Positions 488-20,828 of a DNA stretch of 32,000 bases are shown here, one piece after another. Position 1 is the stretch's first letter. Every line of letters begins with the position of its first letter. The notes below the pieces were generated by a model. The model saw only the letters and a list, made by a program, of their open reading frames with translations, had not been told where the DNA came from and ran no database searches. Both the position numbers and the translations under genes were made by a program. Source of the stretch: Rhodospirillales bacterium (GTDB lineage: Bacteria > Pseudomonadota > Alphaproteobacteria > Reyranellales > Reyranellaceae); assembly GCA_016185145.1 (NCBI GenBank), contig JACPOB010000091.1:15788-47787 (forward strand), in the 5' to 3' direction.

Positions 488-1270
488 ATGAAGAAGATGA
501 TCGCGAGTACGTCCCTCGATCGAAAAGGCCCGTCGACGGTTGCCGTTGATCCTTGGGCGCCGACCAATCCATCGACAGGGAGATTGCCCCAGCTGCTGAC
601 CGACGAAGAGCGGGCGCAGTTGGCCATCATTGCGTCGGTGGTGCGCTTCAAGAAAGGCGATGAAATCTATCGAAGCGGCGGTCGCGCCGAGGCGATATTC
701 AACATCGTCAGCGGCGTGGTGAAATGTTATTGCGACAGCGACGCAAATCATATTGCGTCTTTTCTGTTCCCTAACGATGTGTTCGGCCTGTCCGCCGAAG
801 GCGTATATACGAATTCTGCCAGGGCGATAACGCCGGTTACGGCGTACAGACTCCCGACAGCCGCGCTGCGGGGCCGTCTGTCGAAAAGCGCCGTGTTGGG
901 CTATCACGTGATCTGCAAACTGTGCCAGGAACTACGTCAGGCGCAGCGCCACGCCTTCCTCCTCGCACAGCGTCATGCTGATGCGAAGATCGCCATGTTT
1001 ATCGAAATGCTGCGGCAGCTCCAGGTTGCCAAAGGTGGCTCCTCGACCGAGATCTACGTTCCGATGGATCGCTCGGATATCGGCGAGTACGTCGGACTGT
1101 CGCTCGCCGCAGTGAGTAGGACCTTTCGCAGTCTTGTCACGCACGGCATCATCCAAACTCGGGACCGTAGACATGTGAAGGTTGCCGATCGAGCGGCTTT
1201 CGAAAACATCGTGGCTGGCGGCTCGGCCCGGCGCGTTGGCCGAAGGGTGAAACGAACTTTGCGAACGTAA
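488..1270 (+). CDS. Crp/Fnr family transcriptional regulator (FixK-like, no N-terminal Cys cluster)
   Basis: cNMP-binding-type beta-roll (FKKGDEIYRSGGRAEAIFNIVSGVVK) followed by a C-terminal HTH (RSDIGEYVGLSLAAVSRTFRSLVTHGII). No FNR-type Fe-S cysteines. The recognition helix reads AAVSR rather than the E..SR of FNR/FixK. Confidence 0.9.
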   Translation: MKKMIASTSLDRKGPSTVAVDPWAPTNPSTGRLPQLLTDEERAQLAIIASVVRFKKGDEIYRSGGRAEAIFNIVSGVVKCYCDSDANHIASFLFPNDVFGLSAEGVYTNSARAITPVTAYRLPTAALRGRLSKSAVLGYHVICKLCQELRQAQRHAFLLAQRHADAKIAMFIEMLRQLQVAKGGSSTEIYVPMDRSDIGEYVGLSLAAVSRTFRSLVTHGIIQTRDRRHVKVADRAAFENIVAGGSARRVGRRVKRTLRT

Positions 1271-3576: not shown

Positions 3577-3815
3577 TCAGGCTGCCCGCCAGGAAGTCAT
3601 GCGCGGATTGGAACCCTGGTCGTGCTCGCCTGTAGTCACCAGAGTCGGGGCCTTGATCTCGGTTGGCCGGTCGGCGAGGTCGGTCGTAGCCAGCACGCGG
3701 TACGCCGCCGCATAGGATGCAGGATCGTTGGCCTGGTTGCGGGTCGCGTACTTCGGTCAGCTCGGGGTGAGCCTCGCGGAATTCATCGGTGAACCAGCGG
3801 TTCGAGCGAGCAGCG
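3577..3815 (-). pseudogene. alpha/beta-hydrolase (3-oxoadipate enol-lactonase-like) internal fragment, frameshifted
   Basis: One frame reads RWFTDEFREAHPELTEV. A second frame continues ANDPASYAAAYRVLATTDLADRPTEIKAPTLVTTGEHDQGSNPRM. There is no N-terminal nucleophile region and no C-terminal His region. Boundaries are approximate. Confidence 0.55.
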
Positions 3816-3835
3816 GAAGTGGTCGCCGGGAATGC

Positions 3836-4160
3836 CGCTGCCCAGCGCCACGCGCTGCTGCTGCCCGCCACTCAGCTCACGCGGCGCTGGGCCCGGTCGG
3901 GCCAGCCGGACCAGCATCAGCGCGCGCGACGCGCCGGTCGATATCCGCCCGTGCCACGCCGCGCATCTCGAGCGGGAAGGCGACGTTGCGCGCCGCCGTC
4001 AAGTGCGGGAAGAGCCGCATAGCTCTGGAACGCCACGCCAATGTCCCGCCGGGCTCGCGAACGGCCCGCCAGTCGATCAGTTCCGCGAACAGACCCGCGT
4101 CGCGGTTTTCCTGGGCGCGATCGAGCCGATACAGGGTGACGTACCGGTGCGGACAAGCGC
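3836..4160 (-). pseudogene. ABC transporter ATP-binding protein fragment, multiply frameshifted
   Basis: Pieces lie in different frames: RDIGVAFQSYA, LFPHLTAARNVAFPLEMRGVARADIDRRVARA, and the signature motif LSGGQQQRVALG (about 3840..3875). No Walker B follows; the reading instead runs into the hydrolase fragment. Boundaries are approximate. Confidence 0.6.
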
Positions 4161-4307: not shown

Positions 4308-5063
4308 TTAGAACCAAGTCCGCAGGCCGACCGTGAAGCGGACCTGCTGAGTCGGACCGCCGGCGGCACTGACGTAATCGGCGGTAGCGCCGTATTGGCC
4401 GAAATAGGTGATGCCGAGATAGGGCGCGAACTCTCGCGTTATTTCGTAGCGGAGACGCAGCCCCACATCGAGCTCCGAAAGCCCGGCGCCGACGTTCCGT
4501 GCCGGGTCGTCCTTGGTGTAGAAATTCATCTCGAACTGCGGCTGCAGGACCAGGCGCTGTGTGATGAAGAGATCGTAGCTGGCCTCCAGCCTGGCCGCGA
4601 GATGCCCCTCGCCGCTGACGTAGCCGAACGCGGAGACCTTGAAGAAGCCCGGCGCCAATCCCTGGATGCCGATGCCGCCCCAGCCGCGACTGGGCAACGA
4701 GTCCAAGTCCCATCGCACACCGACCAAAGCGTCGAAATAGGTCGTGATGGCACGGCCGTAAAACAGCTGCTGGATGCCGTCGTCCAGTTGGTTGTCGCTA
4801 TAACGGCCTTCGCTCAATAGCCAGATCTTGTTCTCGTCGGTGCCGACCCAGCCCGACGCCTCCCAGCGGAAAGTGTTGCCCTGGGCGAAGCCGAAGCGCC
4901 CTTCCAGCTGGTCGAACAGCAGATGGGCAAAGATCGCCTTGTCGAGCAACTGCGGCATGCCTTGTGGCTGGTCGGCGGTGGGCGTCTGTTGAGCGTGGGC
5001 ATTGCCCGCCAGCCCGGCGGCGAGCAGGACAACCGCGCAGAGCGCGGCGCGGAGCTTGGTCAT
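4308..5063 (-). CDS. copB: copper resistance protein B (outer-membrane CopB/PcoB family)
   Basis: Signal peptide (LLAAGLAGNAHAQQ) followed by a beta-barrel-type sequence ending in an aromatic residue (..GLRTWF). Its ATG overlaps the copA stop (ATGA). Confidence 0.85.
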   Translation of the reverse strand: MTKLRAALCAVVLLAAGLAGNAHAQQTPTADQPQGMPQLLDKAIFAHLLFDQLEGRFGFAQGNTFRWEASGWVGTDENKIWLLSEGRYSDNQLDDGIQQLFYGRAITTYFDALVGVRWDLDSLPSRGWGGIGIQGLAPGFFKVSAFGYVSGEGHLAARLEASYDLFITQRLVLQPQFEMNFYTKDDPARNVGAGLSELDVGLRLRYEITREFAPYLGITYFGQYGATADYVSAAGGPTQQVRFTVGLRTWF

Positions 5064-6910
5064 GATATGCGCACCTCGCGCATCATGCCCGTCTCCATGT
5101 GGTAGAGGAGATGGCAGTGGAAGGCCCAGCGGCCGGGCTCGTCGGCGCTCACCAGGAAGCTCAGCTTCTCACCGGGCTTGACCAGAATGGTATGCTTGTA
5201 CGGGCGGTATTCGCCTTGCCCGTTCTCCAGCTCGCTCCACACGCCATGCAGATGCATCGGGTGCTCCATCATGGTGTCGTTGATCAGGGTGAAGCGTACC
5301 CGCTCGCCGAGCCGAAGCGTGATCGGCGCGGCATCCGAGAATTTCGTGCCGTCGAAGCTCCACATGAAACGGTCCATGTTGCCCGTCAGGTGCAGCACGA
5401 TCTCACGCGTCGGCGGTCGCGGGTCGTTGCCGCGCTTGGCGTTCCGGAGGTCGGTCAAACGCAGCACTCGCCGGCCGTTGCCGTCGAGCCCGCCGCCCGC
5501 TTCGGCGAGACGGTTCCTTGGCGCCATGGCGACGTTGTCTACGCCGACACGGCCTTCGAGCCAGGTGGCAGCGTCTTGCCCGGACATGCCGGCCATCGCC
5601 CCTTGGCTCGGCGCCGCGCCACTCATGCCCGGCATGGCGGCATAATTGGGCGGCGTGGCCGTCGTCGGTCCATGCGTCATGCCGGGCATCGAACCGTGCT
5701 GCATTCCAGAACCCTGGTTCGTCCCCGGCACGGCGTGGCCCGTGTGGGCGTTGTTCGATGCGCCCCGCCCAGAGCTGCCGTGTCCCGAGCCTCCGTGTTC
5801 CATGCCCATGTCGACCATGGTGCGCATCGGCCGTGGATCCATCGGCGGGATCGCCGCTTGCATGCCGAGCTGCGGGGCCAGGGTGCCACGCGCGAACCCG
5901 GTGCGGTCCTGGGTCTGGGCGAAGATCGTGAAGGCGCGCGCCTGGCGCGGCTGGACGATCACGTCATAGGTCTCGCCCGGGCCGATTCGGAACTCATCGA
6001 CCGTGACCGGCACGACGTCGTTGCCGTCACTTTGCACCACGGTCATCGGCAAGTCGGGGATGCGCACATCGAAGATGCTCATGGTGCCGGCATCGATGAA
6101 GCGCAACCGCACCCGCTCACCAGGCCGAAACAGAGCCGTCCAGTTGGCCGCCGGCGGCTGGCCGTTCATGAGATAGGTGTAGGTCGCACCCGTCACGTCG
6201 AGAATGTCGGTCGGGCCCATACGCATCTTGGCCCACATCAGACGATCCTGGATCGTCGGGCCAAGGCCATCGCGCCTGACGTCGTTTATGAACGTGCCCA
6301 GCGTGCGCTGATTGTAGTTGTAATAGTCGGCGTCGAACTTGAGCTTACTGATGATGGTGAGAGGGCTCTCGTCGCTCCAGTCCGACAGCACGATCACATA
6401 GTCGCGATCGAAGGCCTGCGCAAAGCCGCCCTTGGGCTCGATGACCAGAGAACCGTAGACGCCGGTCTGCTCCTCGGCGCCATGCGCATGGTACCAGTAG
6501 GTGCCGCTCTGGCGTACGGGAAAGCGGTAGGTGAACGTCTGGCCCGGCGCGATGCCGTTGAAGCTGAAGCCCGGCACGCCGTCCATCGGCGAGGGCGTGC
6601 GGATGCCATGCCAATGGATCGACGTCGGGAAGGACAACCGGTTGGTGACCGCGAGCGTGACGGTCTCGCCTTCGCGCCACCGTAGGATCGGACCGGGGAC
6701 CTGGCCGTTGATTGCCGTTGCGGTCATGGTCCGGCCGGTGACGTTGAAGGGCAGTGGACCGATGTCGAGCTTGAACTCGGTGCCGCTCAAGACCTGTTGG
6801 GGCGCTCCGGCCAGGGCTGCGCGCCATGGCGGCACGGTAACCAGAGCACCCGCGGCAGCAGCTCCCTGGACGAAGCGTCGGCGGCCGACGCTCGGACGAC
6901 TCCCAGTCAT
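5060..6910 (-). CDS. copA: copper resistance multicopper oxidase CopA/PcoA, Tat-exported
   Basis: Tat motif GRRRFVQGAAAAG. Cu-site motifs HWHG, WYHAH, HPMHLHG and HCHLLYHMETGMM. Contains a Met/His-rich insert. I place the start at the ATG at 6910 (MTGSRPSV...) because it overlaps the stop of the upstream cusF-like frame (ATGA); the track ORF extends to 6964. Confidence 0.9.
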   Translation of the reverse strand: MTGSRPSVGRRRFVQGAAAAGALVTVPPWRAALAGAPQQVLSGTEFKLDIGPLPFNVTGRTMTATAINGQVPGPILRWREGETVTLAVTNRLSFPTSIHWHGIRTPSPMDGVPGFSFNGIAPGQTFTYRFPVRQSGTYWYHAHGAEEQTGVYGSLVIEPKGGFAQAFDRDYVIVLSDWSDESPLTIISKLKFDADYYNYNQRTLGTFINDVRRDGLGPTIQDRLMWAKMRMGPTDILDVTGATYTYLMNGQPPAANWTALFRPGERVRLRFIDAGTMSIFDVRIPDLPMTVVQSDGNDVVPVTVDEFRIGPGETYDVIVQPRQARAFTIFAQTQDRTGFARGTLAPQLGMQAAIPPMDPRPMRTMVDMGMEHGGSGHGSSGRGASNNAHTGHAVPGTNQGSGMQHGSMPGMTHGPTTATPPNYAAMPGMSGAAPSQGAMAGMSGQDAATWLEGRVGVDNVAMAPRNRLAEAGGGLDGNGRRVLRLTDLRNAKRGNDPRPPTREIVLHLTGNMDRFMWSFDGTKFSDAAPITLRLGERVRFTLINDTMMEHPMHLHGVWSELENGQGEYRPYKHTILVKPGEKLSFLVSADEPGRWAFHCHLLYHMETGMMREVRIS

Positions 6911-7397
6911 GAGTGACCTCCTGTGGCGGGCGCGATCGAGTCGATAAGGTATGCGCCGTCGCAAACCCGCTCCATCACGAAGCGCACGTGGGTGCCGGGC
7001 TTGATGGAGCCTGGGTCCACCGACGGTGCGACGGAAGGGTCCGTCATCATTGCCGGCCAGCCGATCCCTCGGGGGAGTGGTTCAGGGCCGGCATCGAGCC
7101 ATGGTCCATCGTGCTGTCGTCCATTCCACGCACTGTAGCCGGGGTCGCAGGGCTCGGTTGATGGCTCATCCCGCTCACGGATGCGGGGGCAGTTGGGCCG
7201 GCCTGCACGGTGCCATAGCCTTCACCCTCGCCGGCAAGGGCTGCGTTGCGCGGGATGCGTGAGGCATTCCCCAGATCGACCGCCAGCGGGGCAGAACCGG
7301 ACTGCGGCGGGACGACGACCAGAGCTTGGTCTGCGCAGGCGGCAAGGACAAGCAAGGACGAGCTCCAGAACAGCAGATGAAGTGAAGGAAGCTTCAT
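6907..7397 (-). pseudogene. CusF-like periplasmic copper-binding lipoprotein, interrupted by a frameshift at a homopolymer
   Basis: The N-terminal frame (start 7397) has a lipobox (LLVLAAC) and a Met/His-rich segment, and stops at 7047. The C-terminal frame reads IGWPAMMTDPSVAPSVDPGSIKPGTHVRFVMERVCDGAYLIDSIAPATGGHS* and ends in an ATGA overlap with copA. The two frames join if the G5 run at 7071..7075 (C5 on the coding strand) had one more base. Confidence 0.65.
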
Positions 7398-7458
7398 CGA
7401 AACTCTCGCAAAGAGATCAAACCAAAATTTACACAAGCCGCTTCTGCGCCGCCGCACA

Positions 7459-7472
7459 TTGATCCAGCTCAA
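7459..7472. promoter_or_regulatory. FNR/FixK-type box TTGATCCAGCTCAA
   Basis: Perfect TTGA-N6-TCAA. Its centre is about 68 nt upstream of the cusF-like start (7397, minus strand). That fits a class II site at about -41.5 with a short leader. Confidence 0.6.
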
Positions 7473-7569
7473 AGTGCCAGGGGGCGACCGTCGAAAATTC
7501 TAATCATGATCTAGGTGTCTCTGGGAGTCTCGGATGAGACAGACATTTGACGCCTCGGCAGTCTAGCCT

Positions 7570-7583
7570 TTGATCCAAGTCAA
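7570..7583. promoter_or_regulatory. FNR/FixK-type box TTGATCCAAGTCAA
   Basis: Perfect TTGA-N6-TCAA. Its centre is about 86 nt upstream of the ATG at 7663 (plus strand). The 16-mer TTGATCCAAGTCAAAG is nearly identical to the one at 7459. Confidence 0.6.
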
Positions 7584-7662
7584 AGCAGCGGCGGTCTTTG
7601 GCTGAAATGAAGGAGGGGTCCGACAACGGACGAGCTCAGACCAGTGAGACGGAGATATAGTC

Positions 7663-8382
7663 ATGATGATCGCCAGCAGAGCTATGCAGGCCGCGAGCTT
7701 GGCAATCGTGATTGGCGTGTGCGGCTTGGCGTTGCCGGCGTCGGGTCAACAGACGCCACCGGCAACCGGCACCCAACCCAAGCCCCCGATGCAGCCCGGC
7801 CCGAGCATGGGCGCGCAGATGCAGCAGCAAGGCATGGAACACGGTCGCATGGGCCAGGGCATGGGCATGGAGGGCAAAGGCATGGGCGGTGCCAACATGC
7901 AGAACATGCAGACGCCGGGCGCTTGCTCCGGCGGACAATGCGGTGGCATGGAAGGCTCAGCGATGCAGGGTCAAATGCCCGGCATGGGACCGAGCGGAGT
8001 GCCGGCGCAAAGCGTGGGCCCGCAGATGATGCAGATGATGATGCAGGGCCATATGGCCGATCTGCCATGGGACCACATCGAGGGACGGATTGCCTACTTG
8101 CATGCCGAGCTGCAGATCACCGAGGCCCAGATGCCGGCGTGGACGGAATTCGCCAATGTGCTGCGTGCCAACGCCAAGCGGATTGCGGAAGTACAAAAGG
8201 CGCCGCAGCGAACGACGACGACCGCAGCCGACAGGATGGATGATCAGGAGCGTTGGCTGACTGCGCGGTTGGAGAGCGTGCGGGCCTTGAAACCTGCCTA
8301 CGTCAAGCTCTACGCTGCGCTCGACGACAAGCAGAAGAAGATCGCTGACGAACTTCTCGCCCCTCACATGGGCATGAGGTAA
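7663..8382 (+). CDS. periplasmic Met-rich protein with C-terminal Spy/CpxP-like (LTXXQ-type) domain
   Basis: Signal peptide, then a Met/Gln/Gly-rich stretch (MQPGPSMGAQMQQQGMEHGRMGQGMGMEGKGMGG...MMQMMMQGHM). The C-terminus (LQITEAQMPAWTEF...ERWLTARLESVRALKPAYVKLYAALDDKQKKIADELL) resembles alpha-proteobacterial Spy/CpxP-family proteins. RBS GGAGA sits 7 nt upstream. Confidence 0.75.
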   Translation: MMIASRAMQAASLAIVIGVCGLALPASGQQTPPATGTQPKPPMQPGPSMGAQMQQQGMEHGRMGQGMGMEGKGMGGANMQNMQTPGACSGGQCGGMEGSAMQGQMPGMGPSGVPAQSVGPQMMQMMMQGHMADLPWDHIEGRIAYLHAELQITEAQMPAWTEFANVLRANAKRIAEVQKAPQRTTTTAADRMDDQERWLTARLESVRALKPAYVKLYAALDDKQKKIADELLAPHMGMR

Positions 8383-8425
8383 GAGCACATCACGTGCAAG
8401 CTTCATGGTGTACCGTGCCCCCCGG

Positions 8426-8489
8426 CGATATCGCGTCCTCGCCTGACGCAAATGAGCATTCTCCCCCGCCAGGCGGGGGCGCGATATCG
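8426..8489. repeat. nested inverted repeat between the Spy-like gene and hupS (possible terminator or attenuator)
   Basis: The outer 10-bp arms CGATATCGCG (8426..8435) and CGCGATATCG (8480..8489) are exact reverse complements. They enclose an inner GC hairpin, CCCCCGCC (8463..8470) with GGCGGGGG (8472..8479). No T-tract follows. Confidence 0.4.
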
Positions 8490-8557
8490 TTCCATTCCAG
8501 GCTTGTCTTCCGCGCGAGCGCAAACAAGCGGCGAAGCGCGTGAGGGAGGATGGCACC

Positions 8558-9526
8558 ATGCGAGCCCGTCCGTCGGTGTACGAGGAACTGCGAAACCAGG
8601 GCGTGTCGCGACGCGGCTTCCTGAAGTTCTGCGGCTACATGAGTTCGGTGTTGGCGTTGCCGGCGGGCAGCACCGAGGCGATCGCGCAAGCGCTTACTTC
8701 CAAGCCGCGTCCGAGCGTGATTTGGCTGTCGGTGCAAGAATGCACGGGCTGCAGCGAGTCTCTGCTTCGTTCGTTCGAGCCAACGCTCGAGAGCCTCATT
8801 CTCGATTCCATTTCGTTGGACTACCATCATGTGTTGCAAGCCGCCGCCGGCGAAGCCGCCGAAGCGGCTCGCGACCAGGCAATCGAGCAGAACTGGGGCA
8901 AGTACTTTCTGATCGTCGACGGCTCGATTCCGGGCAAGGACGCAGGCGCACGCTCGACCACCGGCGGCAAGGCCGGGCTTGCGCTGGTGCGCAATGCAGC
9001 CCAAGGAGCGGCGGTGATTGCGGCCGTGGGCACGTGCGCGACTTTTGGCGGCATCGGAGCCGCGGCGCCCAATCCGTCGGGAGCCTTCGGCGCCGCGGAC
9101 GCACTCGGCGACCTGGTCGCCGCCGGCAAGGTGAAAGCGCCGATCGTCAACGTTCCCGGCTGTCCGCCGGTACCCGAGGTGATCACTGGCCTCGTTACCT
9201 ACTACCTGACCTATGGGTCGATTCCTGCTCTCGACGATCTGCGGCGGCCCAAGGTCTTCTTCGGGAAGACCGTCCATGACGACTGCCCGCGGTTGCCGTT
9301 TTTCGAGCGTCAGCAGTTCGCCCGCAGCTTCGACGACGAAGGCGCGCGCAAGGGATGGTGCCTCAAGGAGCTTGGTTGCAAGGGCCCCCTCACCTTCAAC
9401 GCCTGCACCACCGTCAAGTGGAACCAAGGCAGCAGTTTTCCGATGTATTCCGGGCATGGCTGCCTGAGCTGCGCCCAGCCGAATTTCTGGGATCGGCCCG
9501 GCGGCTTTTACACCAAGCCGTTCTGA
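8558..9526 (+). CDS. hupS: [NiFe]-hydrogenase small subunit, Tat signal, no C-terminal membrane anchor
   Basis: Tat motif SRRGFLKF. Proximal cluster motifs ECTGCSES, GTCATFGG and PGCPP. Distal and medial cluster region HDDCPR...WCLKELGCKGP...NACTTVKWN...GHGCLSC. The protein ends about 17 aa after the last Cys (FYTKPF*). I place the start at the ATG at 8558, with RBS GGGAGGA 7 nt upstream; the track GTG is at 8540. Confidence 0.9.
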   Translation: MRARPSVYEELRNQGVSRRGFLKFCGYMSSVLALPAGSTEAIAQALTSKPRPSVIWLSVQECTGCSESLLRSFEPTLESLILDSISLDYHHVLQAAAGEAAEAARDQAIEQNWGKYFLIVDGSIPGKDAGARSTTGGKAGLALVRNAAQGAAVIAAVGTCATFGGIGAAAPNPSGAFGAADALGDLVAAGKVKAPIVNVPGCPPVPEVITGLVTYYLTYGSIPALDDLRRPKVFFGKTVHDDCPRLPFFERQQFARSFDDEGARKGWCLKELGCKGPLTFNACTTVKWNQGSSFPMYSGHGCLSCAQPNFWDRPGGFYTKPF

Positions 9527-9565
9527 AGAAACGAGAGGCCGGCCTTCTGACGGGGAGAACGTTCG

Positions 9566-11290
9566 ATGGCGCGAGTTGTTGTTGATCCGGTAACCCGCAT
9601 CGAGGGGCATCTCCGGATCGAAGCGGAAACCGACGCCAAAGGCGTCATCACCCGTGCCTCGAGCTCGGGGACCATGATGCGCGGCATTGAGCTCATCCTG
9701 AACGGACGCGACCCGCGTGATGCCTGGGCATTCACGCAGCGGTTCTGTGGGGTCTGCACGGTGGTCCACAGCATCGCGTCGGTGCGCGCGGTCGAGTTTG
9801 CGCTGGGCTACGAGATACCGCCGAACGCCCAGCTCATCCGCAACATCATGATCGCGACCCAGTTTGTCCACGATCACGTCGTGCACTTCTACCATCTTCA
9901 CGCACTCGACTGGGTCGACGTCATCTCGGCGGCCGGCGCCGATCCGGCCGCCACCTCGCGGCTCCAGCGCTCGCTCAGTCCTTGGCCCAACAACAGCGCC
10001 GACTACTTTTTGACCGTCCGTGAGCGGCTGCGGCGTTTCATTGACGGCGGTCAGCTTGGCATCTTCACCAACGGCTATTGGGGCCATCCCGAGTACAAGT
10101 TGCCGCCGGAGGTCAATCTCCTCGCATTCGCGCACTACCTCGAGGCACTGTCCTGGCAGCGGGAAGTCGTCAAGATCCATGCCATCTTCGGCGGCCGCAA
10201 TCCGCATCCCAACTTCGTGGTAGGGGGCGCTCCCTGCGCAATCAGCGAAGGCGAGCGCGTCACGGCGGTGTCGGCCGCGACCCTCAAGCAGGTGGGCGAC
10301 ATCATCGACAAGATGCGCGACTTCGTCGACCACGTCTACCTGCCCGACACCCTGGCCATCGCCAGCTACTACAAGGACTGGAGCCTGCGGGGCGAGGGCA
10401 TCGGAAACTTCCTGTGCTACGGTGATCTTCCACGCGGGACCGATACCTTCAACACATCCACTCTGCTCTTTCCCCGTGGCGCCATACTCGATCGCGACTT
10501 GTCCAAGGTGCTGCCCGTCGATCTCGAAGATCCGGCGCAGGTCCAGGAGTTCGTGAGCCATTCCTGGTACGATTACTCGGTGGGCAAGCATGCCCCACTC
10601 CACCCGTACGATGGCGAGACGCGGCCGAACTACACCGGTCCACAGCCTCCCTATCAACATCTCGACGTCGATCGCTCCTACTCCTGGATCAAGTCGCCGC
10701 GTTGGCGCGGCAAGCCCATGGAAGTGGGCCCGCTGGCCCGCATGTTGGTGCTCTATGCGACCGGCGACCGCAAAGCCCGGGAGCTGGTCGACAGCAGTCT
10801 GAAAACGTTGGATCTGCCGATCCAAGGTCTCTACTCCACGCTCGGCCGGGTCGCTGCGCGAACCCTCGAAACCAAGATACTGGCCGACGCGCTGGCCGAC
10901 ATGCATCGGTCCTTGCTGCGCAACATCGCGGCCGGTGATCGGTCGACGTTCAACGACAGCCTTTTCGATCCATCGACCTGGCCGGCTCAAGCCCGCGGGG
11001 CAGGGTTCATGGAGGCGCCCCGCGGTGCGCTGGCCCACTGGGTCACAATCGAGAAGGGCAAGATCACGAACTATCAAGCCGTCGTTCCCAGCACCTGGAA
11101 CGCGGGTCCTCGCGACGCGCAAGGGCAGGATGGACCTTACGAGGCCGCACTAACAGGGCATCGGCTCGCCGATCCGGCCCGCCCGTTGGAGATCTTGCGG
11201 ACCATACACAGCTTCGACCCTTGCCTGGCTTGTGCCGTTCATGTCGTCGATCCCAACGGCCGCGAGCTTGTCGAGGTCAAGGTTCTGTAA
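9566..11290 (+). CDS. hupL: [NiFe]-hydrogenase large subunit (group 1-like)
   Basis: N-terminal VVDPVTRIEGH and RFCGVCTVVH. C-terminal DPCLACAVH followed by a 15-aa extension (VVDPNGRELVEVKVL) of the kind removed by the maturation protease. Confidence 0.92.
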   Translation: MARVVVDPVTRIEGHLRIEAETDAKGVITRASSSGTMMRGIELILNGRDPRDAWAFTQRFCGVCTVVHSIASVRAVEFALGYEIPPNAQLIRNIMIATQFVHDHVVHFYHLHALDWVDVISAAGADPAATSRLQRSLSPWPNNSADYFLTVRERLRRFIDGGQLGIFTNGYWGHPEYKLPPEVNLLAFAHYLEALSWQREVVKIHAIFGGRNPHPNFVVGGAPCAISEGERVTAVSAATLKQVGDIIDKMRDFVDHVYLPDTLAIASYYKDWSLRGEGIGNFLCYGDLPRGTDTFNTSTLLFPRGAILDRDLSKVLPVDLEDPAQVQEFVSHSWYDYSVGKHAPLHPYDGETRPNYTGPQPPYQHLDVDRSYSWIKSPRWRGKPMEVGPLARMLVLYATGDRKARELVDSSLKTLDLPIQGLYSTLGRVAARTLETKILADALADMHRSLLRNIAAGDRSTFNDSLFDPSTWPAQARGAGFMEAPRGALAHWVTIEKGKITNYQAVVPSTWNAGPRDAQGQDGPYEAALTGHRLADPARPLEILRTIHSFDPCLACAVHVVDPNGRELVEVKVL

Positions 11291-11338
11291 AACGGATGAG
11301 CTCTCATGGCAGGCGAATCGGTTGTGTGGAACGAGAAA

Positions 11339-12100
11339 ATGTCTAATCGCAAGATTGCCGTTAAACGTGCCGCAGGGATGGCCTTGATCGGGGCGTTGGC
11401 AATTCCCGGCAGCGTGTCGACGCTGGCAAGGCCGACGCCGGGCTACGGTGATCTGATCGACCAGTACTGCATTTCGCAGGGGCGCCTGCGTGTGGCGGCT
11501 CATCAATCGCACTGTGCGATGTGCCATCAGACGGGAACATTCGACAGTCTGCCGGCTCATCGTGTTCAGCCCAATTGGACGGAGTTTGAAAACGCCAAGG
11601 CGACCGGCGACTTCAGCTTCTTCTGTCCCGGTGGAGGTGGGGCGGCGTTCCCCTCACTGCCTTCCGGCGGAACGGGGATCCAGCGGCCCGCAACGGGGGC
11701 TGGAGCGTCGCCGCATGCGATGCCGATGCCTCCGGCGAACGCGCCCCAGCCTCCTTCTGTGGCCGATCGGCAACCCGCGGTCGCCGCGGAAGTCGAAGAC
11801 CGCCTGAAGCGCTTTCGCGACGAGGTCGGGATCGGCCAGCCTGAGCCGGCGGCCTGGACCGCCTTTGCCGAGGCCGTGCGCGCTGCCGCAGCGGCCGACC
11901 GCCGCGCGTTCGCGGATCAGACATCGCGTGAGGCGCCAGATGCGCTCAGCCTCGCACGCCAGCAGGAGCGGCGCCTGTCGGCACGGATCGGCGCGCTGCG
12001 CTATGTTGCGACGGCCTTCACTCGCCTTCTGCCGGAATTGAACGATCAGCAGCGCAAGATCGCCAACGAGCGCTTTGCCCTGATTCTAGAGGTCCTCTAA
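11339..12100 (+). CDS. exported fusion protein: N-terminal CxxCH (haem-c motif) domain + Pro/Ala/Gly linker + C-terminal Spy/CpxP-like domain
   Basis: Signal peptide MSNRKIAVKRAAGMALIGALAIPGSVSTLA. Single CAMCH motif plus two further Cys (DQYC, FFCPGG). Linker contains HAMPMPP. The C-terminus is paralogous to the 7663..8382 protein (AWTAFAEAVRAAAAA...ERRLSARIGALRYVATAFTRLLPELNDQQRKIANE). An alternative upstream ATG is at 11306. Confidence 0.7.
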   Translation: MSNRKIAVKRAAGMALIGALAIPGSVSTLARPTPGYGDLIDQYCISQGRLRVAAHQSHCAMCHQTGTFDSLPAHRVQPNWTEFENAKATGDFSFFCPGGGGAAFPSLPSGGTGIQRPATGAGASPHAMPMPPANAPQPPSVADRQPAVAAEVEDRLKRFRDEVGIGQPEPAAWTAFAEAVRAAAAADRRAFADQTSREAPDALSLARQQERRLSARIGALRYVATAFTRLLPELNDQQRKIANERFALILEVL

Positions 12101-12114
12101 GGAAGGAGGATGTC

Positions 12115-12339
12115 GTGTGTCTCGCCGTTCCGATGCGAATCGATTCGATTGACCGATTTGTGGCGCAGTGTTCGGTCCGCGGGGTGTCGCGCGACGTCAG
12201 TCTTTTCATGCTGGAGGAGGGTTCGGTCTCGGTCGGCGACTATGTGCTTGTCCACGTGGGCTACGCCATCCAGGTGATCAGCGCTGCCGAGGCGGCGGCG
12301 ACGTGGGAAATCTTCGACGAAGCTCTTTCGACAGCGTAA
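12115..12339 (+). CDS. hypC: hydrogenase maturation chaperone HypC/HupF family
   Basis: Begins (GTG)MCLAVPMRI, the essential N-terminal Cys motif. 74 aa. RBS GGAAGGAGGA lies directly upstream. Confidence 0.9.
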   Translation: MCLAVPMRIDSIDRFVAQCSVRGVSRDVSLFMLEEGSVSVGDYVLVHVGYAIQVISAAEAAATWEIFDEALSTA

Positions 12340-12348
12340 GGGGGCGTC

Positions 12349-12714
12349 GTGCACGAACTTTCCATTTGCCAGGCTCTTCTCGACGAGGTGTCGCGAGTTG
12401 CTCGACAGCATGGGGCCGAGCGCGTCCTGTCCGTGACCGTCCGAGTAGGCCCCTTGTCTGGCGTCGACTCCGGCTTATTGACGCGAGCATTCAAGGTCGC
12501 GCGCCAGGGCACGGTGGCCAGCGGCGCGCGCCTGTGCATCGACAGGGCTGCCGTGATGCTCGAATGCCGGCAGTGCGGTCGATGCACGACTGGTCGAACC
12601 GGTCGCTTCCGATGCGGCTTCTGCGGCGCGCGCGACGTCGATGTCACCGCGGGCGAGGAGCTGGTTCTTCAGACCCTGGAGCTGGAAACGACGGAGGAAA
12701 GCCATGTGCAATGA
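12349..12714 (+). CDS. hypA: hydrogenase nickel insertion protein HypA
   Basis: N-terminal MHE motif (GTG start) and a zinc site CRQCG...CGFCG. 121 aa. Confidence 0.9.
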   Translation: MHELSICQALLDEVSRVARQHGAERVLSVTVRVGPLSGVDSGLLTRAFKVARQGTVASGARLCIDRAAVMLECRQCGRCTTGRTGRFRCGFCGARDVDVTAGEELVLQTLELETTEESHVQ

Positions 12715-13468
12715 TTGTGGCTGTGCGGTGCCGGACTCGGCGAAACATCACGATAGAATACGTACGCACACCGCGTCGGTCGCAGTGCTGAAGGACCTTC
12801 TTGCCGAGAACGACCGAACGGCCCGGCACAACCAGGTGCACTTCGACGCGGCGGGCGTCTTCGCGATCAACCTGATGTCGGCCCCAGGGTCCGGCAAGAC
12901 AGCGCTCCTCGAGGCAACGATCGAAGCTTTGAAAGGGAAGCGACGGGTGGCGGTCATCGAAGGTGATCTTGCTACCGAGAACGATGCCGAGCGGATTCGA
13001 CGGCATGGCGTCCCCGCGGTCCAGATCACAACGGGAACGGCCTGCCATCTCGACGCGCACATGATCCACGAGGTCTTGCACGACATGCCGCTTCAGGATC
13101 TCGACATCCTGTTCATCGAGAACGTGGGCAACCTGGTGTGCCCCGCATCGTTCGATCTCGGGCAACACCGAAATGTGACCCTGCTGTCGGTCCCCGAAGG
13201 CGACGACAAGCCGGCCAAGTACCCGGTAATGTTCAGGGGCAGCGACGCCATCCTCGTCAGCAAGACCGACCTTCTGCCCCACTTCGACGATTTTCGGCTC
13301 GAACGGGCGCAGGCGGCGGTGCGGAGCATCGCCTGCGATTCGCCCATTATCAGCGTCTCCGTACGCACCAGCAACGGCCTCCGCCATTGGATCGACTGGC
13401 TGGACCGACAACTGGCCCAGTATCGAGGTGGCGAGCGGCCGGCCGTCGCCGTGGAAGCGGCCTCATGA
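12704..13468 (+). CDS. hypB: hydrogenase nickel incorporation GTPase HypB
   Basis: Starts MCNDCGC (high-affinity Ni motif). P-loop GSGKT, then ENVGNLVCP. No poly-His tract. The start at 12704 overlaps the hypA end by 11 nt. The track ORF begins earlier at 12641. Confidence 0.9.
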   Translation: MCNDCGCAVPDSAKHHDRIRTHTASVAVLKDLLAENDRTARHNQVHFDAAGVFAINLMSAPGSGKTALLEATIEALKGKRRVAVIEGDLATENDAERIRRHGVPAVQITTGTACHLDAHMIHEVLHDMPLQDLDILFIENVGNLVCPASFDLGQHRNVTLLSVPEGDDKPAKYPVMFRGSDAILVSKTDLLPHFDDFRLERAQAAVRSIACDSPIISVSVRTSNGLRHWIDWLDRQLAQYRGGERPAVAVEAAS

Positions 13469-14592
13469 GGGGCTCAGCCAAGGCGTGGCTGGAGCGCATT
13501 CGTGGACTGCCCTTGGAGCGACCGCTCAGCATTCTCAACGTCTGCGGCGGGCACGAGCGGACGCTGGCGCAGGCCGGCCTGCGGGCCGCTCTGCCCGAGA
13601 CAATTCGGATCATTCCGGGCCCCGGTTGTCCGGTTTGCGTCTGTCCGGAGGAAGACGTCTACGAGGCGATTCGCTTGGCACTGGAGGACAACACCATCCT
13701 CGTGGCCTTCGGTGACATGTTGCGCGTGCCTGTCAACGTCGCCAAGGGGGAGGTTCGCTCCCTCAGCGAAGCGCGTGCCAAGGGCGCCGACGTGCGGCCG
13801 ATTGCAAGCCCGCGTGAGGCGGTAGCCATTGCCCAAACTTACCCGACCAAGCGTACCGTCTTCTTTGCGGCCGGCTTCGAAACTACGATGGCCCCCGTGG
13901 CGTCCATGCTCTGCGAAGGGGTGCCGGAGAACCTGCTCTTGCTTTTGTCGGGGCGGCTCACCTGGCCGGCGGTCGACATGTTGCTGGCGTCGGAAGCGCC
14001 CGGGTTCGAGGCTTTGATCGCGCCCGGCCACGTGGCGACCGTCATGGGGCCTGAGGAGTGGTCTTTCGTGGCCGACCAGTACGGCATGCCGGCGGCCGTG
14101 GCGGGCTTCACGGCGGAGAGCCTGTTGGCCGCCATCCACTCTGTGCTGACGCAACTTCTTGCCGGCACCGCGGTCTTGGAGAATTGCTATCCAGCCAGCG
14201 TCCGCCGGGGTGGCAATCGGATCGCCAAGCAGTACCTGTCGCGCGCCATGCGAGTCGTCGACGCAAACTGGCGCGCCATCGGCACGATTGCCCGTTCCGG
14301 CTTTGCCCTTGTCGAGGCTTTCGCAAGCCACGACGCACGTAGCCTGTTGGCGCTGTCGGAGACCGCGCAGCGTCGGCGGGCGGGAGAGATGCCGCCCGGC
14401 TGCGATTGCGCCCGCGTCGTGCTGGGCAAGGTTCTGCCGACGGACTGCAAGCTCTATGGTAAAGCCTGCACTCCTCGAAGCCCCATCGGACCGTGCATGG
14501 TGTCGGATGAGGGTGCCTGTCACATCTGGTGGACGTCGGGCATTCGAGACTCTCGAAGTGGCCGTCAGGGACGTCCCACTTACGCGGCTTGA
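13465..14592 (+). CDS. hypD: hydrogenase maturation protein HypD
   Basis: Motifs CGGHE, GPGCPVCVCP, GFETT and PGHV. ATGA overlap with the hypB stop. The track ORF (13138) has a spurious Arg-rich 5' extension. Confidence 0.9.
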   Translation: MRGSAKAWLERIRGLPLERPLSILNVCGGHERTLAQAGLRAALPETIRIIPGPGCPVCVCPEEDVYEAIRLALEDNTILVAFGDMLRVPVNVAKGEVRSLSEARAKGADVRPIASPREAVAIAQTYPTKRTVFFAAGFETTMAPVASMLCEGVPENLLLLLSGRLTWPAVDMLLASEAPGFEALIAPGHVATVMGPEEWSFVADQYGMPAAVAGFTAESLLAAIHSVLTQLLAGTAVLENCYPASVRRGGNRIAKQYLSRAMRVVDANWRAIGTIARSGFALVEAFASHDARSLLALSETAQRRRAGEMPPGCDCARVVLGKVLPTDCKLYGKACTPRSPIGPCMVSDEGACHIWWTSGIRDSRSGRQGRPTYAA

Positions 14593-14598
14593 AGGGCA

Positions 14599-15084
14599 AT
14601 GCCAGCCCCGCCACTCACGCTCGTTCTAGGGTATGGCAACTCGTCGTATGCCGACGATGGCCTCGGAACGAATGCCATTGCCTATCTGAAGGCGCAGGAG
14701 TCGGCGGCAGACCTGCCTGCTGATCTGTTGCTGCTCGACGGCGGAACGGCCGTTTTCGAGCTGGTGGATCATATAGAGCGGTGCGACCGTCTGGTCGTGA
14801 TCGATGCGGCAGAGATGGCCGCAGCGCCGGGCACGGTGCGCTGCTTTGTCGGTGTCGATATGGACCGGCAGCTCGGGCAAGCACGGCGCACGGCGCATGA
14901 GGTTGCGTTACGTGATGTCTTGGACATCGCCCGACTCGAGGAAAGGTTACCTGGGCGGCGAGCACTCATCGGCGTGCAACCCAAGAGCCTCGACTTCAAG
15001 GTTGGGTTGTCGACGGAAGTGGAGCGATCGCTGCCGATTGTTCGCGAGCGGCTCCTTCACGTGATTTTCCATGAATGGAAGTAG
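14599..15084 (+). CDS. hupD: hydrogenase maturation endopeptidase (HupD/HyaD/HybD family)
   Basis: LVLGYGNSSYADDGLG motif, the conserved Asp/His pattern, 161 aa. It matches the cleavable C-terminal extension on the large subunit. Confidence 0.85.
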   Translation: MPAPPLTLVLGYGNSSYADDGLGTNAIAYLKAQESAADLPADLLLLDGGTAVFELVDHIERCDRLVVIDAAEMAAAPGTVRCFVGVDMDRQLGQARRTAHEVALRDVLDIARLEERLPGRRALIGVQPKSLDFKVGLSTEVERSLPIVRERLLHVIFHEWK

Positions 15085-17380
15085 CGTGACGGTCGGCTCT
15101 CTCGCTTCCGTCCTCCTGCTGGTCGAAGGGCGCGTTCAAGGCGTCGGCTTTCGCCCCTTCATCTGGCGATTGGCGCGAGATCACCGTCTGGCCGGCTGGG
15201 TGCGCAATGACGGCGCCCATGTGCTGATACGCCTGGAAGGAACCGAACAGGAGATCGCTGTATTTTCCCGGCAGCTGGTCGACGGATCGCCTCCCCTGGC
15301 GCGGCCTCAGCTGACCTCGATCAAGCCGCTCGCCTGGGAGGGCTATGCCGACTTCTCGATTGAGCCCAGTGTCGTTGGCGAATCCGCCGCCGCGTCAATT
15401 CCACCGGATCACTTTGCCTGTCCCGAGTGTCTGGCGGAGCTGCGTGATCCGTCGATGCGGCGATATCGTTATCCCTTCATCAACTGCACGCAGTGCGGTC
15501 CCCGATACACGATCATCGACTCCCTTCCTTACGACAGGCCCAACACGGCCATGGCTCCGTTTCGGATGTGCGCCGCCTGCCAAGCCGAATATGAGCGTCC
15601 CGAAGATCGCCGCTATCACGCCCAACCGCTGGCCTGCGCCGAATGCGGGCCCAGGCTGCAGTTCGTCACAAACGATGCCTTATTGTCCGACAGTTCTCTC
15701 GACGGCGAGGCGGCCCTCGGCGCAGCGATCTCGTGTCTGCGTCAAGGCCTCATCGTCGCCGTCAAGGGCATCGGCGGATTTCATCTCTTGTGCGACGCGA
15801 AGGCGGAGGCGACCGTCCAGCGCCTTCGGCAGCGCAAGCGGCGGCCACAAAAGCCGTTGGCAGTAATGGTGAAACAGAGCGGGCCGGACGGCTTGCAATA
15901 TGCGCGAGCGGTGGCACGGCTGTCAGAGGTGGAGGCGGCGGCTCTGGTCGATCCTATGCGACCTGTAGTCATCGCGACAAAGGGACAAGAGGTACTCGCG
16001 CCATCCATAGCGCCGGGGCTTGGCGAAATTGGCCTACTGTTACCCTACAGCCCTTTGCACGCGCTGCTGCTTGACGAATTCGGCGGCCCGCTTGTTGCCA
16101 CCAGCGGCAACTGTTCAGGCGATCCGGTGGAGATCGACGAGGGCTCGGCCGTCAAGCGGTTGGGCGACGTCGCGGACGCCTTTCTCATCCACAACCGACC
16201 GATCCGGCGGCCGGCTGACGATCCGGTGTGCCGGGAGATTGCCGGGCAGGTCCGGCCCTTGCGTTTGGGACGTGGCAATGCGCCCTTGCAGCTTGGACTG
16301 CCGGCACGGCTCGAGCGCCCGCTCTTGGCGGTCGGTGGTCACATGAAGAGCACGATTGCGCTGGCATGGGCCGACCGGGCCGTCGTGTCGCCCCATATTG
16401 GTGACCTCGGATCACCGCGAAGTCAGTCACTGTTTGTGGACGTTGTGCAGGGCGTGCAGAAGCTGTTTGGCATTCGGGCGCAAGCGATGGTCTGCGATCT
16501 CCATCCTGGCTACAGCTCCACGCGCTGGGCTCGCCGCAGTGGGCTGCCGGTGATCGCCGTCCAGCATCACCGCGCACATGCCTCGGCCTTGGCAGGCGAG
16601 CACGCGCGCGCCTCCGACATGCTGGTGTTCACGTGGGATGGCTTAGGCATAGGAGACGACCATACGCTGTGGGGTGGTGAGGCATTCTTCGGCACGCCTG
16701 GTCACTGGCGCCGAGTCGCCTCGTTCCGACCGTTCCGACTGCCGGGTGGAGAACGAGCCGCACGCGAGCCGTGGCGCTGCGCCTTGGGTCTCTGCTGGGA
16801 GGCAGGCATGGATTGGGGCGACGCATCCGCAGAGAGCCGGCTGTTGCGGAGAGCTTGGGAGGCCAACATCAACTGTCCGGCCACGACTTCAGTTGGACGG
16901 CTGTTCGACGCTGCGGCTGCGCTTCTGGGCTTCGCCGGCCGTGCGAGCTACGAGGCGCAGGCAGCGATGTGGCTGGAGGCGCAGGCGAGCCATGCCGAGG
17001 CGACAGCAATGCCCCTGCGAACAGAGGCTGGACTTACAGTCGCCGATTGGGAGCCGCTGATGCGGAGCCTAGCCGATGCCTCCCTTTCGGTCGGTGAGCG
17101 TAGCGCCATCTTCCACGAATCGTTGGCGAGCACCCTCCTGGACCAGGCAACACTGGTCCGTACGACGACCTCGATCCATACCGTTGGGCTGGTCGGTGGT
17201 GTGTTCCAGAACAGGCGGCTGACCGAGCGGGCAGTGCACTTGCTCACGGCAGCCGGTTTCGAAGTATTGCTGCCAACGGCCGTGCCGATGAACGACGCCG
17301 GCCTCAGCTACGGGCAGATCGTCGAGGCGGCAGCCTTGCAAGCAACAGCACCGCGAAGGCAAAGCGCACATGCACGCTGA
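15071..17380 (+). CDS. hypF: carbamoyltransferase HypF
   Basis: Acylphosphatase-like N-terminus (VEGRVQGVGFRPF). Two zinc-finger pairs (CPECLAEL...CTQCGPRYT and CAACQAEY...CAECGP). YrdC-like and Kae1-like regions follow. The start could alternatively be the GTG at 15086. Confidence 0.9.
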   Translation: MNGSSVTVGSLASVLLLVEGRVQGVGFRPFIWRLARDHRLAGWVRNDGAHVLIRLEGTEQEIAVFSRQLVDGSPPLARPQLTSIKPLAWEGYADFSIEPSVVGESAAASIPPDHFACPECLAELRDPSMRRYRYPFINCTQCGPRYTIIDSLPYDRPNTAMAPFRMCAACQAEYERPEDRRYHAQPLACAECGPRLQFVTNDALLSDSSLDGEAALGAAISCLRQGLIVAVKGIGGFHLLCDAKAEATVQRLRQRKRRPQKPLAVMVKQSGPDGLQYARAVARLSEVEAAALVDPMRPVVIATKGQEVLAPSIAPGLGEIGLLLPYSPLHALLLDEFGGPLVATSGNCSGDPVEIDEGSAVKRLGDVADAFLIHNRPIRRPADDPVCREIAGQVRPLRLGRGNAPLQLGLPARLERPLLAVGGHMKSTIALAWADRAVVSPHIGDLGSPRSQSLFVDVVQGVQKLFGIRAQAMVCDLHPGYSSTRWARRSGLPVIAVQHHRAHASALAGEHARASDMLVFTWDGLGIGDDHTLWGGEAFFGTPGHWRRVASFRPFRLPGGERAAREPWRCALGLCWEAGMDWGDASAESRLLRRAWEANINCPATTSVGRLFDAAAALLGFAGRASYEAQAAMWLEAQASHAEATAMPLRTEAGLTVADWEPLMRSLADASLSVGERSAIFHESLASTLLDQATLVRTTTSIHTVGLVGGVFQNRRLTERAVHLLTAAGFEVLLPTAVPMNDAGLSYGQIVEAAALQATAPRRQSAHAR

Positions 17381-18389: not shown

Positions 18390-18392
18390 GCG

Positions 18393-18800
18393 TCATCGAG
18401 GCGACTGTCCCAGCGACTCCAACTTGGCCTGTAGCGTATCGGCTGCTTCCGCCGCTTCCGCGATGGTGGCCGCAAGAAGCGTCGGCACCAAAGCCACCTC
18501 GATTGCGGAACCGAGATGATTGCCGCCGTCGTTCGCATGGTCGAGCCACCAGACGGCGGAGAACGCCGTCTCCTCAATCCTCGTTAAGCCGAGCGCATGC
18601 ACTTCGATTGACACTTCGCCCTTCCCAAGGCCGCCGCGGAGGGCCGTCAAGTCGTCCGCCGTGAGCGGCAGGCGTCGCAGATCGACCGTCACCGCTTGGC
18701 CAGTGGCAGCCAGGGCGCGCAAACCGGCGACGACTTCGTTCAGGATCGCAGCCACCATGGGGGAAACCCCACCGTTTCCAAATGGCGAGGTTGTGCTCAC
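18393..18800 (-). CDS. hydrogenase accessory protein, single HupH_C-like (HyaF/HoxQ C-terminal) domain
   Basis: LPLTADDLTALRGGLGKGEVSIEV...RIEETAFSAVWWL resembles the HupH/HyaF pattern L..LG.GEVS....I.ET.F.GVW. GTG start with RBS GGGAGGG. Its stop is only 3 nt from the hypE stop (convergent). Family assignment is from memory. Confidence 0.6.
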   Translation of the reverse strand: MSTTSPFGNGGVSPMVAAILNEVVAGLRALAATGQAVTVDLRRLPLTADDLTALRGGLGKGEVSIEVHALGLTRIEETAFSAVWWLDHANDGGNHLGSAIEVALVPTLLAATIAEAAEAADTLQAKLESLGQSPR

Positions 18801-18860: not shown

Positions 18861-18874
18861 TTGAGGTACATCAA
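18861..18874. promoter_or_regulatory. FNR/FixK-type box TTGAGGTACATCAA
   Basis: Perfect TTGA-N6-TCAA. Its centre is about 67 nt upstream of the GTG start of the HupH_C-like gene (18800, minus strand). Confidence 0.6.
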
Positions 18875-20727: not shown

Positions 20728-20814
20728 GACTGGGTCTCCCACTTATGCCTCAAGATCGATTGATCAAAAGCAACCAACGATTGCCTAAACATATGCGCCA
20801 CGACAGCCGATGCT

Positions 20815-20828
20815 TTGAGATGGATCAA
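20815..20828. promoter_or_regulatory. FNR/FixK-type box TTGAGATGGATCAA
   Basis: Perfect TTGA-N6-TCAA. Its centre is about 94 nt upstream of the lipoprotein ATG (20727, minus strand). A relaxed match TTGATCAAAAGCAA lies at 20760..20773. Confidence 0.55.

Follow-up and report, generated by a model that had tools for sequence, protein, structure and literature searches.

The divergent spacer and its flanking genes

We analyzed a 32,000-nucleotide stretch of a Rhodospirillales genome (contig JACPOB010000091.1, positions 15,788 to 47,787; the whole stretch is called the window below), in which a 265-bp spacer (7398–7662) separates a copper-resistance operon, whose first gene starts at 7397 on the minus strand, from a gene for a Met-rich periplasmic LTXXQ (Spy/CpxP-family) protein, which starts at 7663 on the plus strand and precedes a [NiFe]-hydrogenase cluster. 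The spacer holds two near-identical 16-mers and, judged by sequence, these are real, conserved sites of the FNR/FixK (low-oxygen regulator) type. Loci compared with the window are cited by L numbers.

The minus-strand operon consists of a split cusF-like gene, copA, and copB. The copA gene (5060–6910, its start coordinate taken from the gene call in L081) encodes a copper-resistance-type multicopper oxidase with three Cu-oxidase Pfam domains (TIGR01480, 807.6 bits against a cut-off of 479), and copB (4308–5063) matches PF05275 (E = 5e-75); with CopA and CopB both present, the genes form a Cop/Pco-type copper resistance operon. Upstream of copA lie the N-terminal piece of a split CusF_Ec-domain gene (7047–7397, minus strand, 116 residues, with a lipoprotein signal) and, in another frame, its C-terminal piece (6907–7050, minus strand, 47 residues). 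Taken singly, neither open reading frame (ORF) matched a family (Pfam and NCBIfam for the 116-residue piece), and an intact CusF_Ec domain (PF11604) is absent, the gene being split and the first half of the domain missing. Together, the two ORFs match the N- and C-terminal parts of the ~200-residue CusF_Ec-domain lipoproteins that precede copA in relatives, and the 116-residue piece shares 47–50% identity with the N-terminal half of full-length CusF from L169 and from L171. The label 'cusF-like', given to this gene in a first-pass annotation of the window, is thus right in ancestry, since the two ORFs represent opposite ends of one CusF_Ec-domain lipoprotein. Because the nearest relative, L162, keeps the identical split (9455–10001), this state is perhaps tolerated or functional and not a fresh accident.

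On the plus strand, the first gene, LTXXQ1 (7663–8382), matches PF07813 above the cut-off (E = 1.6e-17), and its translation begins with a signal-like N-terminus, so that domain and predicted export signal together place the product in the LTXXQ family. The protein is 77% identical to an LTXXQ protein of L162, and an exact-protein look-up returned a single contig, identical to the window. It is followed by hupS (8558–9526), encoding the hydrogenase small subunit with the twin-arginine signal SRRGFLKF, and hupL (9566–11290), encoding the large subunit, whose closest solved structure is the membrane-bound hydrogenase of Allochromatium vinosum, 3MYR, which we take to be an Isp-type (group 1e) enzyme. 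A second LTXXQ gene (11306–12100) and then hypC, hypA, hypB, hypD, a maturation-protease gene, hypF, and hypE continue the plus-strand series (11306–18389 in all), and a HupH_C-domain hydrogenase accessory gene (18393–18800; PF04809, E = 1.7e-25) lies on the minus strand. There is no isp1/isp2 between hupS and hupL, which are separated by 39 bp compared with ~2.2 kb in L013–L015, L017, and L029–L030; the isp1/isp2 pair that marks Isp-type (group 1e) enzymes is therefore lacking, though the best solved relative is 3MYR. The position directly after hupL, usually that of the cytochrome b gene in uptake hydrogenases, is occupied by the second LTXXQ gene, which encodes a 264-residue periplasmic protein. 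A post-hupL LTXXQ gene is found throughout the clade with HupS at least 66% identical (L001, L003–L005, L007, L008, L012, L083, L085–L089, and L110).

Two FNR/FixK-type boxes in the spacer

Box 1 (TTGATCCAGCTCAAAG) lies at 7459–7474 and box 2 (TTGATCCAAGTCAAAG) at 7570–7585, both read on the plus strand; their starts are 111 bp apart and they mismatch only at positions 9–10 (GC versus AG), exactly as the first-pass annotation had described them. Its assignment of them to the FNR type is likewise supported, because each is an exact match to TTGA-N6-TCAA and fits the published FixK2 box, a 14-bp imperfect palindrome of the form TTGA/C-N6-T/GCAA (PMC9104804). Box 1, an FNR/FixK-type TTGATCCAGCTCAA site with its core at 7459–7472, is centered at 7465.5, 68.5 bp upstream of the ATG at 7397 that opens the cusF-like–copA–copB operon; box 2, a TTGATCCAAGTCAA site with its core at 7570–7583, is centered at 7576.5, 86.5 bp upstream of the LTXXQ1 ATG at 7663. 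FixK2 boxes of B. diazoefficiens lie 22–287 bp, and mostly 37–150 bp, before start codons (PMC9104804), and the distances of boxes 1 and 2 fall in this range and are compatible with activation.

Three copies of the extended pattern TTGATCCANNTCAAAG are found in the window, the third of them at 20813–20828 on the minus strand, whereas none is expected by chance. Ten exact copies of the core TTGA-N6-TCAA are present in the 32 kb compared to 0.25 expected, a count that none of 100 shuffles reached, and the looser FixK2 consensus is found 12 times compared to 2.0 expected. All ten exact boxes are intergenic (P ~2e-7 under random placement, with genes defined by Pfam hits or third-position GC and covering 79% of the window). 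An assigned start codon lies 46.5–94.5 bp downstream of the box centre for seven of the ten, and at 187.5–193.5 bp for two more. When the 10 non-core positions of the 18-mers were compared, boxes 1 and 2 shared 7, but so did 7 other pairs among the ten boxes, and 2 pairs shared 8; the likeness of boxes 1 and 2 thus appears to reflect a common extended consensus (cTTTGAT(C/G)(T/C)) and not a private relationship. In the earlier proposal this pair links copper resistance to the Spy-like/hydrogenase side; the boxes are, however, two of ten of their kind and do not form a unique link. Tandem duplication of a 111-bp unit was considered as an origin of the pair and rejected, as no similarity extends outside the 16-mers and 717 of 1000 shuffles aligned at least as well.

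Elsewhere in the window, box TTGACCCTGATCAA (435–448) precedes a Crp/Fnr-family regulator gene by 46.5 bp, box TTGAGGTACATCAA (18861–18874) precedes the hupH-like gene by 67.5 bp, and the box within the third 16-mer copy (20815–20828, minus strand) lies 79.5 bp upstream of a small lipoprotein gene (20356–20742, minus strand). Further boxes are found at 23924–23937, intergenic and upstream of a zinc alcohol dehydrogenase gene (22709–23737, minus strand); at 24645–24658, 61.5 bp upstream of an ORF at 24249–24590 (minus strand); at 28502–28515, downstream of a glucoamylase gene and upstream of a small ORF (~28603–28836); and at 30011–30024, upstream of a polyphosphate kinase 2 (PPK2) gene (30205–31077). 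The box at 24220–24233 was given no target gene. The intergenic region of the third 16-mer copy also contains TGGCATGTTTTTTGC (20894–20908, minus strand), a good match to the −24/−12 element of sigma-54 promoters.

Elements of copper sensing were sought in the same DNA. The CopR/CusR site is TGACA-N4-TGTCA (PMC12428095), and no copy with up to two mismatches occurs in the spacer (7398–7662). The absence of a CopR/CueR-type site, asserted in the first-pass annotation, is thus supported for CopR/CusR; CueR-type sites were not searched for directly, and a repeat scan found no short-range dyad in the spacer. The annotation's statement that no cop two-component regulator is encoded nearby agrees with our finding of no response-regulator or kinase genes among the window ORFs scanned against Pfam. 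Near-identical DNA was not found for the window in a plasmid collection, and no Rfam family was detected across its whole length.

Conservation of the boxes across lineages

The nearest CopA proteins (89% identity) are encoded on the metagenome contigs L162 and L163, which carry a copper island with a Cu-ATPase, Met-rich proteins, two LTXXQ genes, an RND adaptor, and a Crp-family regulator, and no hydrogenase. L162 (21.8 kb) contains five exact boxes, one of them before the same split cusF–copA–copB operon. A box precedes the first gene of this operon in six lineages whose CopA proteins are 72–89% identical, and its centre lies 65.5–73.5 bp from the start codon: 68.5 bp in the window, 73.5 bp in L162, 72.5 bp in L169, 65.5 bp in L171, 72.5 bp in L173, and 71.5 bp in L174 (Reyranella aquatilis). 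When the window, L162, L169, and L171 were aligned, conservation was confined to the box, the ribosome-binding site, and the opening bases of the gene, and the remainder had diverged. In Nevskia (L008), a box lies 57.5 bp before copA. No box precedes the cop operon of L175 or L176, and in box-less L175 response-regulator and histidine-kinase genes of CopRS type follow directly after copB.

Two of these loci have a second box further upstream of cop-linked genes, Nevskia L008 (4272–4285 and 4384–4397; 112 bp apart) and R. aquatilis L174 (2658–2671 and 2865–2878; 207 bp apart). Within each of these loci, the two boxes face the same direction of transcription.

On the other side of the spacer, the L162 orthologue of LTXXQ1 has a box centered 87.5 bp before its ATG, compared to 86.5 bp in the window, and the intervening sequence is unrelated; the LTXXQ promoter box is thus conserved in two lineages. 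Box 1 faces the cusF-like–copA–copB operon and box 2 the Met-rich LTXXQ gene, as originally noted, and both placements are kept in relatives. Boxes also precede orthologous hydrogenase operons. The Bradyrhizobium loci L005, L007, and L012 (HupS 71% identical) have an exact box 81.5–87.5 bp before the first gene of a four-gene operon ending in hupS, the Bradyrhizobium-like metagenome contigs L087–L089 carry the same boxes, and in Nevskia L008 an exact box lies ~93.5 bp before the first gene of the operon that holds the orthologous hupSL.

Candidate promoters, competing explanations and signal

We consider it likely that the spacer contains two back-to-back promoters, each activated by an FNR/FixK-type regulator at its own box, and periplasmic copper-detoxification genes, possibly with the neighboring hydrogenase, would probably be switched by an oxygen-type signal rather than by copper. 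A dimeric activator of the CRP/FNR family (FNR/FixK type) would bind two independent sites in the 265-bp spacer, with box 1 serving the split cusF-like gene, copA, and copB on the minus strand and box 2 serving the Met-rich LTXXQ gene on the plus strand, and some transcription may pass the hairpin at the 3′ end of the LTXXQ gene into hupSL and the hyp genes. The reading is further favored by the lack of both a CopR/CusR site and a sigma-54-type promoter (TGG-N9-TGC) in the spacer (the DNA before hupS has no sigma-54-type promoter either), by the FixK2-like regulator gene of the window with its own box, and by an oleate hydratase gene of the window whose homologue blr1289 is an experimentally defined FixK2 target in B. 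diazoefficiens (PMC9104804). If the boxes sit at the usual class II distance (centre at −41.5), the predicted start sites are near 7424 (minus strand) and 7618 (plus strand) and would produce leaders of ~27 and ~45 nt, both with a recognizable ribosome-binding site, and the two polymerase footprints would not overlap. Independent action of the boxes is suggested because each is kept with its own gene where the two modules are not adjacent, and the 111-bp distance between centres (~10.6 helical turns) would argue against a need for face-to-face cooperation. More broadly, the stretch would be part of a low-oxygen-type regulon with at least ten boxes, including those before the hupH-like and FixK2-like regulator genes, and this regulon would have taken over periplasmic copper detoxification from the usual copper sensors in this lineage. 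The sequence itself shows the sites, their enrichment, their position between genes, and their constant spacing in orthologous promoters; which protein binds them, that it activates and does not repress, where transcription begins, and that scarce oxygen is the signal are inferences.

Several results weigh against two box-activated promoters. No box precedes the cop operon in Enhydrobacter/Reyranella sp. (L164, L167), and none, even with one mismatch, precedes the LTXXQ gene or hupS in the closest hydrogenase relatives, Enhydrobacter L001, L002, and L082 (93% HupS identity) and L083 (87%). Because Enhydrobacter and L083 are without these boxes, control through them appears to be recurrent yet lineage-variable. 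A sigma-70 consensus scan of 7000–8800 found no promoter, its single terminator-like match being inside the LTXXQ gene on the opposite strand, and −10-like hexamers picked by eye are weak and 3–5 bp off the ideal class II spacing. The regulator encoded in the window (488–1270, plus strand), a Crp/Fnr-family protein by Pfam whose best solved relative is FixK2 (4I2O, E = 5.5e-22), is perhaps not the one that acts at these boxes: in its recognition helix AAVSR stands in place of ETVSR, with Ala replacing the base-contacting Glu of the E--SR motif of FNR and FixK2, and it scores under the NCBIfam FixK and Fnr cut-offs (for FixK, 97.5 bits where 300 are required). An N-terminal Cys cluster is absent. 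The box 46.5 bp before its ATG suggests autoregulation or a regulatory cascade. Finally, the same site type is common to regulators that answer to nitric oxide (NO) or other signals.

The most serious competitor, to which we give somewhat less than an even chance, is that the reach of box 2 ends with the LTXXQ gene, a part of the copper module, and that hupSL is transcribed separately or only after processing, the two modules being mere neighbors on a mosaic, probably mobile island. This explanation draws on a 22-bp-stem hairpin (8424–8491, plus strand) located 3′ of LTXXQ1 and before hupS. The whole 175-nt LTXXQ1–hupS spacer folds as RNA at −79 kcal/mol (z = −3.5), and the hairpin is kept after the LTXXQ1 orthologues of Enhydrobacter (L001, 9866–9935) and L162 (7399–7475), with two base pairs changed on both sides and four on one side and pairing retained. 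Among the sequences compared, it was seen only after LTXXQ1 orthologues. Because L162 keeps the hairpin and lacks a hydrogenase, the element seems to belong to the LTXXQ gene and not to hupS, and in L083 the LTXXQ gene lies inside the copA operon and points away from hupS; from these two arrangements, the Spy-like gene is best seen as part of the copper module and not of the hydrogenase. The window DNA is a mosaic, with a transposase fragment (1540–1704), an ABC-ATPase fragment (3783–3917), and an IS630-type transposase pair (helix-turn-helix and DDE_3; 24876–25936), and Trb conjugation genes adjoin the cop operon in Enhydrobacter (L164, 14448–21887), which also speaks for this explanation.

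Other features of the same region count against confining box 2 to the LTXXQ gene. The hairpin has a ~24-nt loop and no U-run and is thus not a canonical terminator; it may be an RNA processing, stabilizing, or attenuating element. The 67 bp between the hairpin and hupS contain no promoter-like or conserved motif when the window is compared with Enhydrobacter, and boxes precede the whole hydrogenase operon in Bradyrhizobium and Nevskia and, within the window, the hupH-like gene. Box 2 may thus be linked to hupSL in transcription, and read-through, perhaps with processing at the long stem, appears about equally likely as separate control of hupSL. The first-pass annotation had tied the Spy-like side to hupSL; this tie is weaker than it proposed, given the company that the Spy-like gene keeps in L162 and L083 and its own 3′ hairpin. 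Separately, two GCGATATCG(C/T) palindromes before hupS were considered as twin operators and rejected in favor of the one long hairpin, as the changes in L162 break each palindrome and keep arm-to-arm pairing.

A different explanation, which we regard as unlikely, keeps the boxes but assigns them to a CRP/FNR paralogue that does not respond to oxygen, such as an NnrR/Dnr-type NO sensor, a redox- or nucleotide-responsive member of the family, or the 488–1270 regulator itself, with another signal. TTGA-N6-TCAA is common to FNR, FixK, FnrN, Anr, Dnr, and NnrR-type proteins, and the table of the B. diazoefficiens NnrR regulon has a like motif; the missing Cys cluster and atypical recognition helix of the 488–1270 regulator fit such a paralogue, as does an adenylate/guanylate cyclase gene both in the window and beside the cop operons of L169, L171, and L173. 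Set against this, hydrogenase genes are classic FNR/FixK targets, for example of FnrN in R. leguminosarum, and the oleate hydratase gene of the window has its parallel, blr1289, in the microoxic FixK2 regulon of B. diazoefficiens, whose listed members also include a cytochrome c gene and the gene for the copper chaperone PCu(A)C, blr7088 (PMC9104804).

It is improbable that one or both boxes are repressor or auxiliary sites, for instance acting ~150 bp upstream of the opposite promoter or both serving one promoter. Two-site FNR repression is known at the ndh promoter, the second upstream boxes of R. aquatilis and Nevskia would suit an auxiliary role, and the box at 435, only 46.5 bp from the regulator ATG, could be autoregulatory; however, the spacing between each box and its nearest gene stays fixed in relatives whose modules are apart, and ~10.6 turns would place the two dimers on different faces of the helix. 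Chance similarity, or a functionless relic of duplication or of a mobile element, retains a negligible probability and is already refuted as far as sequence analysis goes: nothing beyond the shortness of the motif speaks for it, and against it stand the expectations of none for the 16-mer and 0.25 for the core, the intergenic position of all boxes, the lack of flanking similarity, and conservation across lineages.

For two box-activated promoters, low oxygen would be the signal, as judged from the kind of site, a gene content like that of the FixK2 regulon, and targets that include hydrogenase genes. The first-pass annotation called an FNR-type site before an O2-consuming oxidase counter-intuitive and offered Cu(I) stress at low oxygen as a rationale. 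The paradox has already been stated for CueO of E. coli, whose substrate Cu+ is the prevailing form when oxygen is absent, and copper builds up to higher levels in anaerobic cells (PMC12510620). Because work from 2025 showed a catalytic contribution of CueO to anaerobic copper resistance (PMC12510620), and because FixK-type systems are on under microoxia (0.5% O2) and not under strict anoxia (PMC9104804), that rationale is reasonable, and a multicopper oxidase may well be able to use the residual oxygen of microoxia. The boxes add genomic support. Periplasmic multicopper oxidases are usually described as copper-induced, oxygen-dependent detoxifiers, and the dominance of Cu(I) where oxygen is scarce is the recognized paradox (PMC12510620); a box before cusF–copA–copB in six lineages, together with copper-sensor genes in a box-less relative, suggests low-oxygen deployment in some bacteria and constitutes independent genomic evidence for it. 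R. aquatilis is a culturable carrier of the arrangement, and Enhydrobacter aerosaccus is a natural control without boxes.

FixK2 is involved in hup expression in B. japonicum. In Rhizobium leguminosarum, FnrN anaeroboxes precede hypBFCDE, a likeness to the window in that FNR-type boxes stand before [NiFe]-hydrogenase structural or maturation genes. In contrast to rhizobial FnrN/FixK control of hydrogenase genes, the box here precedes an LTXXQ gene and not hup or hyp directly, and the hydrogenase, closest to A. vinosum 3MYR, has neither isp1/isp2 nor a cytochrome b gene and lies between LTXXQ genes. The FixLJ–FixK2 microoxic regulon of B. diazoefficiens resembles the window in its 14-bp imperfect palindrome and in the distances of boxes to start codons, and it too has boxes in divergent intergenic regions (bll6073/blr6074, bll4634/blr4635, and hemN2/bsr7087); its oleate hydratase gene blr1289, a target type shared with the window, has the box TTGATCCAGCGCAA, one base off box 1 (PMC9104804). 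There, however, divergent pairs share one box, whereas here there are two separate boxes, one per direction; the targets here include a CopA/CopB operon and an LTXXQ protein, which are not among the listed FixK2 targets; and the host is a Reyranella/Enhydrobacter-like bacterium and not a rhizobium. Copper-sensor systems such as CopRS/CusRS–copAB (for example in Pseudomonas putida) and CueR–cueO of E. coli use the same effectors, a CopA-type multicopper oxidase (TIGR01480), CopB, and a CusF-domain protein, but here the promoter has an FNR/FixK-type box, with no TGACA-N4-TGTCA in the spacer and no two-component genes among the ORFs scanned. A literature search of limited extent found no report of FNR/FixK control of a multicopper oxidase, of copper resistance, or of a copA/copB operon. 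The site type and FNR-type control of hydrogenase genes are thus already known; what appears to be new is the target set (cusF–copA–copB and a Met-rich LTXXQ gene), its conservation over six lineages, and the apparent exchange with CopRS-type control in L175.

The cop operon lies beside the LTXXQ-flanked, Isp-less hydrogenase clade in at least seven gene orders, namely the window (4308–7397 and 8558–18800), L083, L004, L008, L090, Enhydrobacter/Reyranella L164–L168, and L173, whereas the loci with more distant hydrogenases yielded no copA. The Bradyrhizobium loci are without copAB, and a gene for a Met-rich DUF326 protein with a twin-arginine signal stands directly before hupS instead. These arrangements flag a repeated association of copper-handling genes with one hydrogenase clade. 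We see only a small chance that the CopA/CopB/CusF/LTXXQ set is, beyond a general copper-resistance cassette, a dedicated partner of the Isp-less periplasmic hydrogenases, co-induced by an FNR/FixK-type factor and shielding their exposed Fe-S and Ni-Fe centres from periplasmic Cu(I) at low oxygen; more speculatively, electrons from H2 could be routed to O2 through the multicopper oxidase. The recurrent adjacency could also reflect shared carriage on mobile DNA, given the Trb genes in Enhydrobacter and the insertion sequence (IS) elements in the window.

The window also encodes an oleate hydratase, an adenylate cyclase, an alcohol dehydrogenase, a glucoamylase, a di-haem cytochrome c, and PPK2, and it contains IS and pseudogene fragments. 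The adenylate/guanylate cyclase gene recurs beside cusF–copAB or the hydrogenase cluster, at 21039–22097 (minus strand) in the window, 4244–5314 in L169, 9183–10442 in L171, and 2244–3314 in L173. In the box-less Enhydrobacter spacer upstream of LTXXQ1, TTGATCAAAG (L001, 8590–8599) resembles the 16-mer minus its central six bases, either by coincidence or as the possible remnant of a lost box.

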